Below, in pieces: positions 3 through 11,836 of a DNA stretch of 64,000 nt. The DNA lies in the NCBI GenBank assembly GCA_964291405.2, contig OZ219926.1, positions 3,872,001-3,936,000 on the forward strand. The letters run 5' to 3'. The notes beneath the pieces are model-generated. The model worked only from the letters and a program-made list of their open reading frames with translations. It was not told where the DNA came from and searched no databases. How positions within the stretch are numbered: the first letter of the stretch is position 1; every line of letters starts with the position of its first letter. A program made the position numbers and the translations under genes. The stretch is from Thermodesulfobacteriota bacterium. Its GTDB lineage: Bacteria > Desulfobacterota > Binatia > Bin18.

Positions 3-1928
3 GTGGGGGATGAGACGGCGGTCACCGGTCAAATCGCCCGTATGGAACGGCGCTTTCTGGCCCGCCGCCGTCGCTGGGTGCTCGAAGCCGTTGTCCGAGA
101 CGAAACCGGTTTTCTCTTCCTGCTGTGGTATCACCAGCATCGCTATTTTCAGCAGCGCTATCAACTTGGTCAGCAGGTCCTGCTGTACGGCAAGGTCGAG
201 AAGGGCATGAAGGGCGGCAAGTGGATGATCCACCCGGACATGGAGCCGCTGGAAGAAGAAGACGAGACCGCCCGTGTCTTGCCCATTTACAATAAGACCA
301 CCGAAATGACGGTGGCTGCCATGCGCCGGGTCGTGCATGGTGCCGTTGACCGCTACGTCGATCAGGTCGCCAACGGCGTGCCACAGGAAATTTGTGATCG
401 CTTGAACCTGATGCCGCTCAATCACGCCCTGCGGCAGTTGCACTTCCCCCCGCTCGATACTGAGGTTGTTGAACTCAATGAGGCCGCCTCTCAGGCGCAC
501 CGGGCCGTGGTGTTCGATGAACTCTTTTATTTGCAACTGGGCATGGCCCTGCGCCGGCGCAATACCGTTCGGGAAGAGGGGTTGTCCATTGTGCCGGGAC
601 CGCTCGTCCAGCAGATATATAGTATCCTGCCGTTTCAATTGACCGCAGCCCAGGAGCGGGTGGTTGAGATGATTTTTCGGGATATGGCGGCTCCCCACCC
701 CATGAACCGCCTGGTCCAGGGAGATGTTGGCTCGGGCAAGACGATCGTAGCCTTCTTTGCGGCCCTGGCCGCCCTCGATAGCGGCTACCAGGTGGCTTTC
801 ATGGCTCCGACGGAGCTCTTAGCTGAGCAGCACTACCGGACGCTGACGCCGCTGGCTGAGCAACTCGGCCTGTCCATGACGCTGCTGACCGGAGAAATCC
901 GCCCGAAACGGAAACAAGAGATCTATGGTCTCCTGGAACGGGGCGAGGTCGAGGTCGCGGTTGGCACGCATGCCCTGATCCAGGAGGGCGTGCGCTTTCG
1001 GCATCTGGGTCTGGCCATCGTGGATGAGCAGCATCGCTTTGGGGTGATGCAGCGCGCCGCCCTGCGAAAACGCGGTGCGAACCCGGACATTCTGCTGCTG
1101 ACCGCAACCCCAATCCCCCGCACTCTGGCCCTGACCCTGTACGGCGACCTGGATGTCTCAGCTATTGATGAACGCCCGCCTGGCCGCAAGCCGATCACGA
1201 CCCATGTGTTCCATGAAGGCGAGCGAAAAAAAGCCTATCATCTCGTCAAAGACCAGCTCGAACGGGGCCATCAAGCCTATGTGGTCTATCCGCTGGTCGA
1301 GGAATCCGAGAAGTCCGACCTCAAGGCTGCGACCTCCATGGCTAAAGAGCTGGCCCAGACTTTCTTTGCCGACTATTCGGTCGGGCTCGTGCATGGCCGC
1401 ATGAAGGGCGGTGAAAAAGAAGCGGTTATGCAGCGCTTCAAGGCTGGCGAGCATCATTTGCTGGTTTCGACTACCGTCATTGAGGTCGGCATTGACGTGC
1501 CGAACGCGACCGTCATGGTGATTGAGCATGCCGAGCGCTTCGGTCTGGCACAGTTGCACCAGTTGCGCGGTCGAGTCGGACGCGGGCAGGCCGCCTCCTC
1601 GTGTTTGCTGCTGGCCCAGTACGCGCCGGGCGACGAGTCCCAGCGGCGTCTTCAGGTCATGACGGAAACCGATGACGGCTTCAAAATTGCCGAAGCTGAC
1701 TTGGCGTTTCGCGGGCCGGGCGAGTTTCTGGGCACACGCCAGTCCGGCATGCCCGACTTCCGGGTGGCCAATATCGTGCGTGACAGCAAACTGCTGGAAA
1801 CCGCGCGAGACGAAGCCCTGACCTGGCTCGAACGTGACCCCAATCTGACCACCCCCGAATCCCGCCGGCTACGCGCCGTCCTCGAAGACCGCTGGGCCGG
1901 CCGGCTGGAACTGGCCAGGGTGGGGTGA
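3..1928 (+). CDS. recG: ATP-dependent DNA helicase RecG (5' part lies outside the window)
   Basis: QGDVGSGKT Walker A, DEQH, TATPIPR, QLHQLRGRVGRG and RGPGEFLGTRQSG motifs. Confidence 0.97.
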   Translation: MGDETAVTGQIARMERRFLARRRRWVLEAVVRDETGFLFLLWYHQHRYFQQRYQLGQQVLLYGKVEKGMKGGKWMIHPDMEPLEEEDETARVLPIYNKTTEMTVAAMRRVVHGAVDRYVDQVANGVPQEICDRLNLMPLNHALRQLHFPPLDTEVVELNEAASQAHRAVVFDELFYLQLGMALRRRNTVREEGLSIVPGPLVQQIYSILPFQLTAAQERVVEMIFRDMAAPHPMNRLVQGDVGSGKTIVAFFAALAALDSGYQVAFMAPTELLAEQHYRTLTPLAEQLGLSMTLLTGEIRPKRKQEIYGLLERGEVEVAVGTHALIQEGVRFRHLGLAIVDEQHRFGVMQRAALRKRGANPDILLLTATPIPRTLALTLYGDLDVSAIDERPPGRKPITTHVFHEGERKKAYHLVKDQLERGHQAYVVYPLVEESEKSDLKAATSMAKELAQTFFADYSVGLVHGRMKGGEKEAVMQRFKAGEHHLLVSTTVIEVGIDVPNATVMVIEHAERFGLAQLHQLRGRVGRGQAASSCLLLAQYAPGDESQRRLQVMTETDDGFKIAEADLAFRGPGEFLGTRQSGMPDFRVANIVRDSKLLETARDEALTWLERDPNLTTPESRRLRAVLEDRWAGRLELARVG

Positions 1929-1948
1929 GCCTGACGCCGTTCCGCATT

Positions 1949-2557
1949 TCATTTTTTCGGCTTACCAGGGATCATTTCTAAAGACTCGATATCACGAGTG
2001 TTCAAATACACCCCACCCTGCGTTAAATCTCGTCGGATATGAAGGTCGTTGTCCACGAGATACGCTGGACGGAGGAGGAACTCATGATCTTCAGCCGCAG
2101 GGTCAAAAGAGTATTCCTTTACCCAGCCCAGGTAGAGTACGTCCTGCTTGGTACGAGCGAGTACCCAGAGGTCATCCTTGGGAGCATTGTCAACAACAAC
2201 ATGCCAGATAGCCTGGGGGTCAGGGGTTGGAAAGAAGTCAAGTTTGATACGGAGCCAATGCCCGGCGATAAGAATACCGCCCCAAATAGCCCCTCCACCG
2301 AGTAGAACTGCAATCATCATGGGCTGGATTTCGGAGCCCGAATCTGGGTTTAGGATGTCAGGGTCTTTACAGCCAAGCATATAAGCCGCAGTTGAGAGTC
2401 CTAAAAGTATTAGAAAGCTATGCAGGATGCTCCAGCCAATGGCCTCAAACCGAGACAGGGGCTTGGCCGGGTAGCGCACCCGATAAATCTGCATGGCGAG
2501 GAAACCAGGTAGCAAATAGAGAAGGAGGACGAGGGTATCGCCAAGAGGAATCTTCAT
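1949..2557 (-). CDS. Membrane protein with 3 TM helices and a C-terminal beta-rich (Sm-like) domain, DUF6338-like
   Basis: N-terminal LLYLLPGF, three hydrophobic segments, AIW motif, WV..TK....YLG, and C-terminal GVYLNTRDIESLEM. Confidence 0.75.
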   Translation of the reverse strand: MKIPLGDTLVLLLYLLPGFLAMQIYRVRYPAKPLSRFEAIGWSILHSFLILLGLSTAAYMLGCKDPDILNPDSGSEIQPMMIAVLLGGGAIWGGILIAGHWLRIKLDFFPTPDPQAIWHVVVDNAPKDDLWVLARTKQDVLYLGWVKEYSFDPAAEDHEFLLRPAYLVDNDLHIRRDLTQGGVYLNTRDIESLEMIPGKPKK

Positions 2558-2598
2558 AGTTCCAGTGGCTTCGGAGAAAGTCTGTTGTTGCTGGGTTG

Positions 2599-2796
2599 CT
2601 ACGAATCATCATTACCTGTTTTTTGCAGCGTCGCATCCGAGTTATCGCTCCCACTCGGTTGTTGTGAACCCTGGCCACTCGGTTGTTGTGGGTTCTGGAC
2701 TATAACCGGTGGGCTGGAATCTGGATCTTTATTGGTGTGTGTGTACGACCTCAAGAGATCGGGGTTGAAATTGGAATGATCATTGCGCTTCGGCAT
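2599..2796 (-). CDS. Small Pro/Gln/Ser-rich peptide (65 aa) upstream of the DUF6338-like gene
   Basis: Strong RBS GGAGGT-AAAT-ATG (ATG at 2796); internal QQPSG repeat; the frame continues past the TAG to a TGA overlapping the next gene's ATG (2557). Confidence 0.65.
   Translation of the reverse strand: MPKRNDHSNFNPDLLRSYTHTNKDPDSSPPVIVQNPQQPSGQGSQQPSGSDNSDATLQKTGNDDS
2651..2690. repeat. 16-bp direct repeat with a 24-bp period, encoding QQPSG twice
   Basis: ccactcggttgttgtg at 2651-2666 and 2675-2690. Confidence 0.85.
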
Positions 2797-2855
2797 ATTT
2801 ACCTCCAAATAGAAGTTAGTTAGCTAGATTCCTCTTACTATAGACGGACAACCGA

Positions 2856-5800
2856 ATGCAAACTGAGGCATCACCGGATCACCAAGGTATGAACATCAAC
2901 AATACTGTACAGGGCAGTCTGTTTGCCCGCGACTTTCTGACGGAATCCATCTCGCAGTTATCCGACTGGCAGGCTGTTGACGATGCGGCCCTGGACGAAT
3001 TTGAACGCGCGCTGCGGAGTATCTTCGACCCCTTCCCGACCGACCAGACCCCCAACGAGAGCCAGACCGAGGACGATCTGATCTGGCCGGTACTCGAAGC
3101 CTTGGACTGGACGGCCAGCCTGCGCCAGCAGAATCTCTCGTCGCGCGGTCGGGACGACGTGCCCGACGGTTTGCTCTTTGCCGACGAGGCGACCAAGGGC
3201 CGCGCCAACCGTTACCAGCAGGAATGGAGGCGTTACGAGTACGGCTCAGCCGTGGTCGAGTCCAAACGTTGGTAACGTCCGCTTGACCGGCGCTCCGACC
3301 GGCGGGGCGAGGAGACCGCGCCCTCGACCCAGATGTTGCGCTACATGCGACGGGTGGACGACCTGACGAACGGTGCGTTGCGCTGGGGCATGTTGATCAA
3401 TGGAGCCAAGTGGCGGCTGTACTGGGCTGGTGCGCGGTCCGTATCGGAACAGTTCTTCGAGCTTGACTTGGCGGCGGCCCTGAATCTGCCCGGCCATAAC
3501 GACGGCCTGTTCGCGCTGTCCGAGACCGACCGCCGGCACTGCCTCAAGCTGTTTTTGCTCTTCTTCCGGCGTAACGCCTTCCTGTCCGATCCTGCCACCG
3601 CAGATTCGCGCACGCTACACCAGCGCGTTCTCGATGAGGGCCGCGTTTACGAAGAACGGGTGTCCGCTGATTTGTCCGAGTTGGTTTTCAAACAGGTATT
3701 TCCCAAGTTGGCTCGGGCCATTTCCGAAGCTGCCCCGGACGCACCGTTGTCCGAGGTGCGTGACTCGGCCTTGATTCTGCTCTATCGGTTGCTGTTTATC
3801 CTGTATGCCGAAGACCGCGACCTGCTGCCGGTGCGGGATGAGCGCTACGACGATTACGGCCTGCGCGACAAGGTGCGGGGCGACATTGGGCGCCGTAAGA
3901 GCCAGGGCGATACCTTCTCAGCCAGCGCGGCCCGTTATTGGTCAATCATTGACGATCTGTGCCGAGCGATTGACCAAGGCGATACCTCGATTGGCCTGCC
4001 GCCCTATAACGGCGGTCTGTTCGACCGGCAACGCACGCCGCTGCTGACCACCGTCCGGTTGGGTGATGCGGTCATGGCCGACGTGATTGACGCGCTCTCG
4101 TTTGAGGTGACCGACCAGGGCCGGCGCTATATCAACTACCGTGATCTGAGCGTGCAGCAACTCGGTTCAATATACGAACGCCTGCTCGAATACGAAGTCG
4201 TCCGCGACGGCACCGCAATCAACGTGCAGCCTAATGTGTTCGCTCGCAAGGGCTTGGGCAGCTATTACACCCCGGACGATCTCGTAGAGGTGATTCTCAA
4301 GGAGACGGTCGGCCCGTTGGTCGAGTCCTGCACGGAGGCTTTTGCCAAGAGGGTAAGGCGCATTCGTCGGAGTCGCCGCGAGCCGAGCGCCGGACTTGCC
4401 GACCTCAGGCGGCTCGATCCTGCCGAGCGGCTCTTGGAACTGAAAATCTGTGATCCGGCCATGGGTTCCGGGCATTTTCTGGTCAGTCTGGTGGACTATC
4501 TGGCCGACAGCGTAATTGCCGCTCTTGCCGAGGCTCAGGCTACGGTTGAGAACTATGTTTCGCCGTTGACCGAGCGGATTGACGATATTCGCACCACCAT
4601 CCTGCATAATGCCAGCGAACGCGGCTGGACCATAGACGCGGAACAGCTTGACGACCGTCACATCATTCGCCGCATGGTGCTCAAGCGCTGCGTGTACGGC
4701 GTGGACAAAAACCCCATGGCCGTTGAACTGGCCAAGGTGTCGCTGTGGCTGCATACCTTTACCGTAGGGGCACCGCTGAGTTTTCTGGACCACCATTTGC
4801 GCTGCGGCAACAGTCTGTTCGGCTGCTGGGCGCGTCAGGGCATCGAGAAGATGAGTGCCGGTGAACCGGGCTGCGGACGCGGCCAACGCCATGCAGGTTG
4901 TTGAGCATCTGACGGATGCCGAGATTGCCGAGGCCCACCAGTCCGCCCAGACCTTTGCGCAGGTGGAAGCCATGACCGCGCCGCTCGACGCGTTTCTGTC
5001 GCTGCTGCACGCCCTGGACTGGCTGGATATCCGAAATCGTGACGACACGGCTGCGCTGCATGCTTTTTTCGAGGGCCGCCTGGGCGACCCGCTCGATATT
5101 GCACCGGGACAGTGCCCCGTCTCGACCGCCACACCCGACGGCGAACGGTTCGCCGGGCTGTTGGAACGGGCACGCACTCTCATGGCCGAAGAGCGCTTTC
5201 TGAACTGGCAGGCCGCATTTCCCGGTGTGTGGACAAATCTGAAGAATGTGGAGCCGGACGGCGGCTTTGACGCGGTCATCGGCAACCCGCCCTGGGACCG
5301 TATCAAGCTGCAACAGGTCGAATGGTTCGCGGCCCGCCGCCCCGAGATTGCCCTGGCCCAGCGCGCTGCGGACCGCAAGCGTATGATCGCTGCCTTGGAA
5401 AGGGAGGGCGATCCGCTGAGCCGCGATTTTGCCAAGGCGAGCGAACGAGCCGTCGCTGCCACGCGCATGGCGCGGGCGTGTGGCGATTACCCCTTGTTAT
5501 CGCGTGGCGACGTGAATCTCTATTCCCTGTTTGTCGAGCGGGCCATGACGCTGGTTAAGCCGACGGGCATGGTTGGCCTGCTCGTGCCGTCCGGCATTGC
5601 GTCGGACAAGACCGCCGCCGCGTTTTTTCAGGGCGTGGCAACGGAGGGGCGGTTGCGGGCGTTGTACGACTTCGAGAATCGTAGAACCAAGTTCAATGCA
5701 CCGCCGTTTTTCCCGGACGTGGATAGCCGTTTCAAGTTCTGTGCAATCGTGGCCAGCCCGACATCAACCAGCGAGCCTGCCCACTGCGCGTTCTTTTTGC

Positions 5801-6942
5801 AGGATGTCTCCGAACTCAACGACCCGGAGCGGCGTTTCCCGCTGACTGCTGAGGACTTCGCTCGTGTCAATCCGAATACCGGCACCGCACCCATCTTCCG
5901 CACCAGCCGTGACGCCAAGCTAACGACTGCAATCTACGAACGCCTGCCTGTGTTGGTAGATTGCTCTGGTGGCGAGGAAGTCAAGGCGTGGCCGGTACGA
6001 TACTCGACCATGTTTCACATGACGAACGATTCCGGCCTGTTCCGTACACGGGAAGAGTTGGAAGAAGGGGAGGGTGCATGGCCTATTGGTGGCAACCGTT
6101 TTGGTAGCCCAAGTGGGGAATGGGTACCGCTATACGAGGGAAAGATGGTGCAGGCGTTCGATCACCGGGCTGCGAAAGTGGTGGTTAATCCCGAAAATCA
6201 GCATCGACCGGCCCAGCCCGTGCCTGCTACCCTGGAGCAGCACCGAAACCCGGCCTGGTTGCCTGACCCGCAGTTTTGGGTGGCTACATCGGAGTGCGGC
6301 TACTCCCCGGAATCGGGTTGGGTTCTGGGCTTCAAGGAAATCACAGCCCCCACGAATGTCAGGACCTTTATCGCTGCGCTCCTGCCTGCGGTAGGTTTCG
6401 GGAACAAGGTACCAATCCTCAAATCGGAGACGGCGGACCGAACCGAATGGCTGTTGGCCGCCAATCTCAATGCAACGATTTTCGATTTCGCAGTACGGCA
6501 GAAAGTACAAGGCCAGACCTTGAACCTCTTCATCGTCGAACAGCTACCCGTCGTTCCGCCCGACCGCTACAACACCGTCCGTTTCGGCCCCAAGACCGCC
6601 GGCGAGATTGTCCGCGAGGCCGTGTTGGAACTCACCTACACGGCTCACGACATGGCCTCTTTTGCCCGTGACCTGGGCCATATTGATGAGACTGGCGAAG
6701 TAAATCCGCCGTTTGTGTGGGACGAAGAACGCCGGTTGCATCTGCGGGCCAAGCTCGACGCGGTGTTCTTTCATTTGTACGGCGTCACCGACCGCGATGA
6801 CGTGCGCTACATCTATTCCACCTTTCCCATTGTCGAACGCCAGGAAACGGCGACCTATGGCCGCTACCGCTCGCGTGATTTGTGTCTGGCGTGGCTGAAT
6901 GCCTTGGCGGCGGGAGAGCCGGACGCAGAGATTGATTTGTGA
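2856..6942 (+). pseudogene. Type IIG (Eco57I-like) fused restriction endonuclease/N6-adenine methyltransferase, disrupted
   Basis: N-terminal PDGLLF...VESKRW nuclease motif, CDPAMGSGHFL SAM-binding motif and VIGNPPW catalytic motif; in-frame TAA at 3273-3275 and a frameshift near 4855. Confidence 0.88.
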
Positions 6943-11346: not shown

Positions 11347-11518
11347 ATGCGGAAGGCTAAAATAGATTCCCCTGCGACAAAGGCCGACTTGGCTGTTTTG
11401 GAAGCCCTGCCGTGACGAAGACATTGATACGAGCGATATCCCGAAGGGTACAGACTGGAGCGATGCCGTCCGGGGGAAGTTTTATCGTCCAGTGAAAAAG
11501 AAAAATCGGTCGGATTAG
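11347..11518 (+). pseudogene. BrnA-type antitoxin remnant (frameshifted, C-terminus lost)
   Basis: MRKAK...LEALP* followed in the +1 frame by DEDIDTSDIP..TDWSDAVRGKFYRPVKK, typical of the BrnA N-terminal half. Confidence 0.7.
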
Positions 11519-11538
11519 CGTAGCGTAATCCGACCGAT
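11505..11538. repeat. REP-like palindrome (13-bp perfect stem)
   Basis: atcggtcggatta-gcgtagcg-taatccgaccgat. Confidence 0.85.
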
Positions 11539-11560
11539 ACGGTCCGTCCGAACATGTCGG

Positions 11561-11650
11561 GTGACGAGACAGTGTGAAAGTGAGAGGGGTGTTCTCATTG
11601 CTGCCGGAGAAATCAGAACAATAGAATTTTGGCCTTAGAATTTTGGCCTT
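11561..11650 (+). pseudogene. 3' fragment of a second DUF6338-like gene, with a 14-bp tandem duplication
   Basis: Translates to ...ESERGVLIAAGEIRTIEFWP*, aligning to GVYLNTRDIESLEMIP of the 1949-2557 protein; agaattttggcctt duplicated at 11623-11650. Confidence 0.55.
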
Positions 11651-11671
11651 ACAATCCTCAGGGGGAAACCA

Positions 11672-11836
11672 ATGCGCAAGAATAATACATCTGCGGCTCC
11701 GCGTCCGTCCAACAAACAGAAGAAAAACGGCCTTCGGGTCGATTTCTCTCGCGGCTATCAACCTGTGGCGACCGAGCAGTCTCCAAAAAAACCGCCCACC
11801 AATCCGCCAAATCAAGGCACCGCCGGAAAGAAATGA
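11672..11836 (+). CDS. Small Pro/Lys-rich peptide (54 aa), not in the ORF track
   Basis: RBS-like GGGGGA upstream; MRKNNTSAAPRPSNKQKKNGLRVDFSRGYQPVATEQSPKKPPTNPPNQGTAGKK*. Confidence 0.65.
   Translation: MRKNNTSAAPRPSNKQKKNGLRVDFSRGYQPVATEQSPKKPPTNPPNQGTAGKK

Follow-up and report, generated by a model that had tools for sequence, protein, structure and literature searches.

Do two small genes that lie one behind the other at the edge of a cluster of bacterial defence genes work as a unit, and if so, what kind of unit is it? The question is raised by 64,000 nucleotides (nt) of DNA from a Thermodesulfobacteriota bacterium (Binatia; Bin18), positions 3,872,001 to 3,936,000 of the forward strand of contig OZ219926.1. 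The whole of this stretch is called the window here, and coordinates given without a locus are positions in it. One of the two genes encodes a small peptide rich in proline, serine and glutamine; the other, directly behind it on the same strand, encodes a membrane protein of the Pfam family DUF6338 (PF19865). A first-pass annotation, made from the letters of the window alone, had described the pair as a two-gene module and ventured that the peptide might plug, inhibit or trigger a ring formed by the membrane protein. The best explanation of the comparative data assembled below is that the peptide and DUF6338 genes form one operon, which represents a single branch of a cassette that is widely distributed and moves horizontally. 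The frequent company of anti-phage genes makes the cassette a promising candidate for a conflict system not yet described.

The evidence that carries the pairing comes from the relatives of the window's DUF6338 gene. In one branch of the family, here the window branch, the peptide gene stands upstream of DUF6338; in the other branches the peptide gene stands downstream. A scan of genomes, one per species, returned 11 loci of close relatives at 52-63% identity, in assemblies of Nitrospirales, Binatia and Gammaproteobacteria, and at every one of them an upstream open reading frame (ORF) of about 59-77 amino acids (aa) on the same strand carries a conserved core motif. Over these loci the core reads [KR]-S-[FYIL]-T-H-x-N-P-x-P-x-T-x-P-P and is followed by a variable polar tail; the pattern for the family is [KR]-S-x-T-H-x-x-P-x-P-x-x-x-P-P. 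A GGAGG-type site is visible in 10 of the 11 upstream regions, and the eleventh is confirmed in a sister locus (AGGAGG). Metagenomes contributed 26 further loci, four of which (L063, L066, L067 and L068) were excluded because the match is a fragment or lies at a contig edge. All 22 usable loci have an upstream ORF with T-H and P-x-P in register, representing 15 distinct sequences, and one metagenome peptide has K instead of the motif S. The one member in genome G065 has its peptide upstream too (1/1). In an alignment of 18 peptides, the codons used for the invariant residues (S, H and two P) include all the synonymous ones, and thus selection acts on the protein. The peptide ORF that the first-pass annotation had singled out therefore stands before every usable window-branch gene once the flanks of homologues are scanned for short ORFs, as it had recommended, and the two-gene module that it described is conserved. 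Both ORFs lie where it had placed them (Table 1), the larger one with the soluble-domain sequence that it had quoted.

The association is also specific when the searches are run in the opposite direction. A profile of the peptide has a single match in the window's own genome, namely the ORF of the window, and in 61 related genomes it has matches in two, each directly 5' of one of the only two window-branch DUF6338 genes there. An automatic control screen, which looked beside each gene for an intergenic ORF that is polar and has a proline content of 10% or more, found one at 14 of 22 DUF6338 genes as against about 8 of about 225 other genes at the same loci; the genes missed by the screen have peptides that are seen by eye and fail one threshold. 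Applied to the full window, the same screen picked out one gene in 46, that of the DUF6338 protein.

The peptide of the window fits its description as small and disordered, since the AlphaFold model has no secondary structure and a predicted template modelling score (pTM) of 0.14, the highest predicted local distance difference test values (pLDDT) falling on the core motif. The strong ribosome-binding site attributed to it is likewise present, as a GGAGG 5 nt ahead of the ATG. Between the two genes, the spacer at 2558-2598 holds no terminator, and the DUF6338 gene has no clear ribosome site; in a scan of 1850-3050 no promoter-like site was found, and the one terminator-like site, at chance level, lies inside a gene. 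Among public sequencing runs, a single 192-nt contig from an RNA library covers 2298-2486, which is too little for claiming transcription. The low-complexity tail of the peptide contains an in-frame duplication of two 16-nt copies 24 nt apart (Table 1), and Tandem Repeats Finder reported nothing over the peptide gene. Strain variants in public run X3 include an in-frame 12-nt insertion after 2684, also in the tail, and in one contig of this run the peptide region is replaced entirely, from 2619 to 2796.

Pairing is not confined to the window branch. In other branches, sampled in the same genus and phylum, all 11 evaluable loci (L013-L019, L021, L023, L026 and L027; L025 is not judgeable, being at a contig edge) have a proline-rich ORF of 43-69 aa directly downstream of DUF6338 and on its strand, often overlapping the DUF6338 stop codon by 4-14 nt. 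Locus L022, at 28.5 bits against the Pfam cut-off of 26.5, matches in the helical part only and has no proline-rich ORF, and for these reasons its membership in the family is doubtful. Gammaproteobacterial loci repeat the arrangement, with a downstream ORF in 13 of 14 new loci, many with runs of at least 8 prolines; the exception, L082, is a partial match without a downstream ORF. Plasmid PALBO2 of Paludisphaera borealis (L095) has a 49-aa proline-rich ORF at 6692-6841 of that locus, unannotated in the RefSeq record. Over 2472-6717 of L095, genes for an ATP-binding protein and for an S8 peptidase precede DUF6338, all of them on one strand, and an integrase and a ParDE pair are near. The downstream peptides share a layout of a basic residue, G or S, and an aromatic or aliphatic residue, followed by P...PP, which, judged by eye, resembles the motif of the window branch. 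In 3 (P0154, P0182 and P0194) of 12 longer proteins, chosen among the 150 top-ranking matches to a family profile, a tail with the peptide motif forms the C-terminus of the DUF6338 protein itself. By the same kind of profile search, the family comprises 4487 clusters at 50% identity (E <= 0.001), spread over many phyla. The window's own genome has a second DUF6338 copy, of another branch (L013, G000:C3:2954773-2955204), which a frameshift has shortened to 155 aa as compared to the 226 aa of its intact orthologue in L019; an intact 51-aa proline-rich ORF, ending in seven prolines, still lies 3' of the broken gene.

A literature search found the pair mentioned in print once, in passing. In Pseudomonas stutzeri, three novel proline-rich proteins of <50 aa are encoded in a predicted operon with DUF6338 gene Pstu14405_RS12030; unannotated before, they were seen by digest-free mass spectrometry with 44-114 spectra each (PMC10433244). 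The authors thought them confined to that species, and their paper assigns no function, remarking that DUF6338 turns up in biosynthetic gene clusters as well and that peptides rich in proline can have antimicrobial activity (PMC10433244). In the loci collected here the proline-rich partner turns out to be family-wide and not specific to P. stutzeri. One of them, L014 (= L032), has two peptide ORFs 3' of DUF6338, a truncated copy of 30 aa and a full one of 54 aa, which recalls the three of P. stutzeri.

It can be asked whether the small ORF is a working protein at all, or a regulatory leader that tunes expression of the membrane gene, for example by stalling of ribosomes at proline runs. Its upstream position in the window branch would suit a leader, as would the long proline runs in other branches and the strong GGAGG sites of the peptides set against DUF6338 genes that often start at GTG or TTG without a clear ribosome site. 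Four gammaproteobacterial loci (L007, L008, L009 and L011) add a hairpin, TCCTGA...TCAGGA, between the peptide stop codon and the GTG start, about 20-45 nt 5' of DUF6338; it is conserved, with compensatory changes in L011, and may couple or limit translation of DUF6338. In most of the family, however, the ORF is downstream of the membrane gene, and where it is upstream the motif is close to its N-terminus, with about 130 nt left to the next start. What is conserved is the amino-acid sequence; there are also fused forms, and stable peptides were seen by mass spectrometry (PMC10433244). A leader-only role was rejected on these grounds, namely downstream placement, amino-acid conservation, fusions and detected peptides, and it must be considered highly improbable. 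Within L011 (6177-8340), the DUF6338 gene is broken behind residue 93, where an insertion sequence bearing transposase-like ORFs has entered; the upstream peptide gene is intact.

Table 1. The peptide-DUF6338 cassette and its neighbours in the window.
Feature	Position	Strand	Basis
Peptide gene, 65 aa, proline/serine/glutamine-rich, disordered	2599..2796	-	ORF; ATG 2794-2796, stop codon 2599-2601
Shine-Dalgarno GGAGG (CCTCC on + strand), 5 nt before the peptide ATG	2802..2806	-	sequence
Conserved core motif, peptide residues 16-30, here R-S-Y-T-H-T-N-K-D-P-D-S-S-P-P	2707..2751	-	alignments, motif scan
In-frame duplication in low-complexity tail, two 16-nt copies 24 nt apart	2651..2690	-	repeat search
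Spacer between peptide and DUF6338 genes, 41 nt	2558..2598	-	sequence
DUF6338 gene, intact, 202 aa	1949..2557	-	ORF; Pfam PF19865 E 3e-15
Three predicted membrane helices, residues 8-28, 36-61, 79-105 (codons for 8-105)	2243..2536	-	AlphaFold model
Predicted Sm-like domain, residues 109-201: one helix, then bent beta strands	1955..2233	-	AlphaFold, Foldseek, VIA-align
Neighbour: conserved 641-aa gene, convergent to DUF6338, edge of variable hotspot	3..1928	+	ORF; weak helicase-type PADLOC matches
Neighbour: divergent type IIG restriction-methylase gene, degraded	2889..6942	+	PADLOC REase_MTase_IIG/DrmMI
Neighbour: NACHT antiphage gene HyoA, intact, 1480 aa	6899..11341	+	NCBIfam NF058534, 1357.7 bits vs 1200

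What the peptide could act upon depends on the structure of its partner. A Pfam search, which the first-pass annotation had advised, assigns the 202-aa protein to DUF6338 with 56.8 bits against the cut-off of 26.5 (E 3e-15), over profile positions 8-202 of 205, and the genome search agrees. The protein has 50 homologues at 36-100% identity and keeps all invariant columns of the branch alignment, in which tryptophans and a tyrosine are conserved in the C-terminal domain. An AlphaFold model built from a 25-row alignment (mean pLDDT 79.4) shows the three membrane helices that had been claimed for the protein, the third of them glycine-rich, then a short helix at 114-124 and bent strands between 130 and 197, with pLDDT of 78-93 over residues 131-190. 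The positive-inside rule is an established basis for inferring membrane topology, and because the loops after helices 1 and 3 are basic, it suggests an N-out, C-in orientation that would put the C-terminal domain in the cytoplasm.

That C-terminal domain had been read from the sequence as Sm-like. Foldseek found nothing in the PDB at E <= 0.001 with the DUF6338 model as query, and its best rows, at E 1.5e-3, probability 1.00 and a template modelling score of 0.70-0.76 on the target, are without exception Sm proteins of archaea or of the spliceosome. The best VIA-align match is SmAP1 (1loj_A), with Z 9.0 and a root-mean-square deviation of 3.4 for 76 residues, over model residues 109-198; nearly all of the 50 best rows are Sm, LSm or Hfq proteins, over model residues 109-201, the best matches having Z of 9.0-6.3. 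Since a best Z of 7-8 is common even for models without a clear match, the uniform list of Sm, LSm and Hfq proteins is a stronger argument than the Z value. The predicted model thus supports an Sm/LSm-like fold for residues 109-201. By sequence, no Pfam LSM family matches at E <= 0.1, and DUF6338 is the sole Pfam family in the protein. The earlier Sm-like call is supported at the level of the fold; by sequence the protein does not belong to the LSM families. Among the sequences of solved structures, the family profile found two chance-level 31-residue photosystem chains and no channel, and the ESM Atlas returned only DUF6338 clusters plus one look-alike cluster, half of it viral. Comparison with holins, of which class I likewise has three helices in N-out, C-in orientation, gave, beside this half-viral cluster, no PHROG match at E <= 1, no phage record and no lysis genes around the cassette.

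The predicted topology bears on the idea that the peptide is an exported or modified product, akin to a bacteriocin or to a ribosomally synthesised and post-translationally modified peptide, with DUF6338 as its exporter or immunity protein. The remark on biosynthetic gene clusters and antimicrobial proline-rich peptides (PMC10433244) would speak for such a role, but peptide and Sm-like domain are both predicted to be cytoplasmic. A signal peptide, cysteines and a cleavage motif of the leader type are all missing from the peptide, and neither a modifying enzyme nor an ABC exporter recurs at the loci. A secreted product was rejected on these grounds and is a highly improbable reading.

The reading preferred here, plausible although somewhat short of probable, sees in the membrane protein a ring-forming effector under the control of the peptide, as in a toxin-antitoxin pair. 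The conserved core of the peptide ([KR]-S-x-T-H-x-x-P-x-P, then P-P) would dock on the Sm-like domain; this domain is rich in aromatic residues, and its conserved tryptophans and tyrosine would be well suited to a ligand rich in proline. By docking, the peptide would govern the assembly of the Sm-like domain, ring-wise like that of Sm proteins, and ring assembly would in turn govern the packing of the glycine-rich third helices in the membrane. A plentiful, well-translated peptide would keep the membrane protein inactive; if the peptide were lost, for instance when host translation is blocked or when the peptide is proteolysed in the course of a phage attack, DUF6338 would assemble and damage the membrane. 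The module would then be a toxin-antitoxin or abortive infection system, possibly a second line beside DNA-modification defences. Prediction of the peptide-DUF6338 complex gave scores of 0.54, 0.29 and 0.28, with a median of 0.29 against a mark of 0.32, and speaks neither for nor against binding. A more specific form of the proposal, which is rather unlikely, makes the cassette a new class of peptide-gated membrane effector: Sm-like ring and glycine-rich helices would form a channel, a miniature of the MscS kind, capped by the peptide until infection stops its supply. Were this true, thousands of unannotated mini-genes across bacteria would act as switches in an abortive-infection system not yet described, a companion of restriction and Hma loci.

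The genomic setting of the cassette is that of a variable defence hotspot. GC content is 0.50-0.52 over the cassette as against about 0.60 in the flanks. On one side lies the convergent 641-aa gene, which we take to be recG and whose flank is also present in same-genus loci; on the other are a type IIG restriction-modification (R-M) gene and the gene for HyoA, which has a GC content of 0.44-0.53 and on which a literature search found no paper. Compared with an intact orthologue of 1376 aa (intact orthologues in the genus have 1364-1376 aa), the type IIG gene is interrupted by one TAA in frame, near 3273-3275, and by one frameshift, near 4855-4904; in genome G006 it is split in two as well. At the other border of the variable region, a 152-aa ORF (11357-11815, minus strand) separates HyoA from a conserved aminotransferase gene. 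The first-pass annotation had placed the pair at the edge of a defence island, back to back with an R-M gene and a nuclease of the signal transduction ATPase with numerous domains (STAND) type. The island edge is borne out, as the cassette occupies a variable recG-side hotspot together with the type IIG gene and HyoA, and adjacency to defence genes recurs elsewhere. Of its neighbours, the R-M gene exists, in degraded type IIG form, and the STAND protein is the NACHT protein HyoA; the nuclease part of the claim gained no nuclease domain.

Within the genus, the site between the recG-like and aminotransferase genes carries alternative cargo. G007 has the same arrangement as the window, and G001, G006, G017 and G025 have DUF6338 of the other branch, with a downstream peptide, about 100 nt 3' of the R-M gene and on the same strand, so that two different DUF6338 branches occupy one recG-side hotspot within one genus. 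Distribution is patchy even there (7/27 genomes). In wider samples DUF6338 matches were found in 10 of 61, 9 of 301 and 25 of 400 genomes, the last set gammaproteobacterial, and 10, 6 and 15 of them, respectively, exceed the Pfam cut-off. Other cassettes also have defence genes for neighbours. PD-Lambda-1 is directly downstream at L002 (E 8e-165); a type II methylase and an EcoO109I endonuclease are directly upstream at L011, with a STAND-type ATPase near; at L039 the cassette is between HmaA (8e-193) and HmaB/HmaC with gaps of <20 nt and a Toll/interleukin-1 receptor (TIR) protein next to it; HEC-01 is 4 kb away at L042; and a NucS-like nuclease domain adjoins the cassette at L009. A PADLOC tally of 137 proteins, which shows 25 of 141 families and is dominated by type IIG pieces, cannot be assigned to single loci, and selected neighbours were therefore scanned individually; L003-L008 lie outside this protein-by-protein scan. 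Several close relatives, and most public runs with the window stretch, bear sponge-metagenome labels, which suggests that the cassette is exchanged among sponge-associated bacteria of different phyla.

Such proximity to methylases raises the possibility that the cassette is a guard or accessory of DNA-modification defences (type IIG, type II R-M and Hma), an effector silenced by its partner system and freed when a phage disables restriction. Six of the 10 DUF6338 loci of the genus adjoin the same type IIG R-M gene, and in 4 of those 6 the cassette lies about 100 nt downstream of it on the same strand; the insertion between HmaA and HmaB at L039 and the type II R-M pair at L011 point the same way. 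At least 8 same-genus genomes, however, have the R-M gene, whole or partial, without DUF6338; the cassette thus does not depend on the R-M gene, although it frequently settles next to it. A methylase is missing from the surroundings of many DUF6338 loci, and the window combines a degraded R-M gene with an intact cassette. Such a guard would have a parallel in the nuclease PrrC, and on balance this reading is unlikely.

Alternatively, peptide and DUF6338 protein could be a constitutive membrane complex, concerned for example with envelope stress, membrane organisation or the tethering of RNA or protein by way of the Sm-like domain, of which complex the peptide is a stoichiometric subunit; closeness to defence genes would then reflect shared hotspots. 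Tight coupling and occasional fusion fit a stable complex, the P. stutzeri peptides are well expressed in standard growth (PMC10433244), defence libraries have no match to either protein, and at L003-L006 and L008 the cassette is between plain metabolic genes with no recognised defence gene near. Other observations speak against this. Distribution is very patchy and the GC content of the cassette is low; two branches replace each other at one hotspot; the cassette turns up within an Hma operon and in direct contact with PD-Lambda-1 or R-M genes; and copies decay, as in the frameshifted paralogue of the window's genome and the gene cut by an insertion sequence in L011. Such behaviour is rare for housekeeping genes, and a constitutive complex is a less than likely explanation.

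Several observations nevertheless weigh against a toxin-antitoxin-like conflict system. Neither product is known to the defence collections: the DUF6338 protein has no match in PADLOC-DB 2.0.0 (E <= 0.1), NCBIfam or PHROGs, and the peptide has none in these or in Pfam. No recognisable defence gene was found at L003-L006 and L008 in the coarse tally of 137 proteins, and the count of defence neighbours was taken without a matched background control. Searches of phage and plasmid collections and of viral contigs found no window-branch member, and the plasmid collection gave its one match to a gammaproteobacterial query. The fused forms may be true fusions or frameshifts introduced in metagenome assembly. 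Abundance of the P. stutzeri peptides in ordinary growth fits an inhibitor made in excess and fits a housekeeping partner equally well (PMC10433244). Finally, ring formation, pore formation and peptide binding are all three steps that we infer. If the cassette should not serve defence, it is still a conserved membrane complex worth naming, and in either case a large family has a mini-gene partner that annotation usually misses.

Comparison with known systems brings out what is particular to the cassette. The operon of P. stutzeri is a close likeness, in that it joins a DUF6338 membrane gene to proline-rich proteins of <50 aa that were detected as stable peptides (PMC10433244); it has three such proteins; in the window branch a single peptide gene lies upstream, and its core motif is another one. 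With Sm, LSm and Hfq proteins the domain at residues 109-201 shares, in the predicted model, an N-terminal helix and then a strongly bent five-stranded sheet; it differs in being anchored in the membrane by three helices and paired with a proline-rich peptide, and in lacking a Pfam LSM match. The heptameric channel MscS also has three membrane helices followed by a beta domain that is classed as Sm-like. By analogy, it shares with the predicted DUF6338 protein the three helices in N-out, C-in orientation, the glycine-rich third helix and the cytoplasmic Sm-like beta domain, while DUF6338 lacks the C-terminal alpha/beta domain of MscS and has a peptide partner. Pfam gives no MS_channel match and MscS is not among the 50 best VIA-align structural matches, so that the likeness to MscS would be an analogy of design, one to which neither the sequence matches nor the structural matches listed lend support.

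PrrC is a cytoplasmic anticodon nuclease encoded in the EcoprrI type I R-M locus, and it is not known to have a peptide partner. The likeness lies in a non-restriction effector set in or against an R-M operon, as at L032-L035, L039 and L011; the DUF6338 cassette, in contrast, is present at loci remote from R-M genes as well. The combination of a membrane-anchored Sm-like protein with a proline-rich disordered peptide has no counterpart among characterised systems. Toxin-antitoxin modules of type II and fused types nonetheless have the same general organisation: two small coupled genes, one product disordered and highly translated, mobile and located in defence hotspots, with a gene order that varies between the branches of the cassette and with fused forms. 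CapRel and similar proteins are toxin-antitoxin modules used in phage defence. From these the cassette differs in having no homology to known toxin or antitoxin families and in having as its putative toxin a membrane protein with an Sm-like domain. If it is indeed a defence or toxin-antitoxin module, it would bring an effector of new design and a peptide switch of a new kind, and a recurrent passenger of R-M and Hma loci would be explained.

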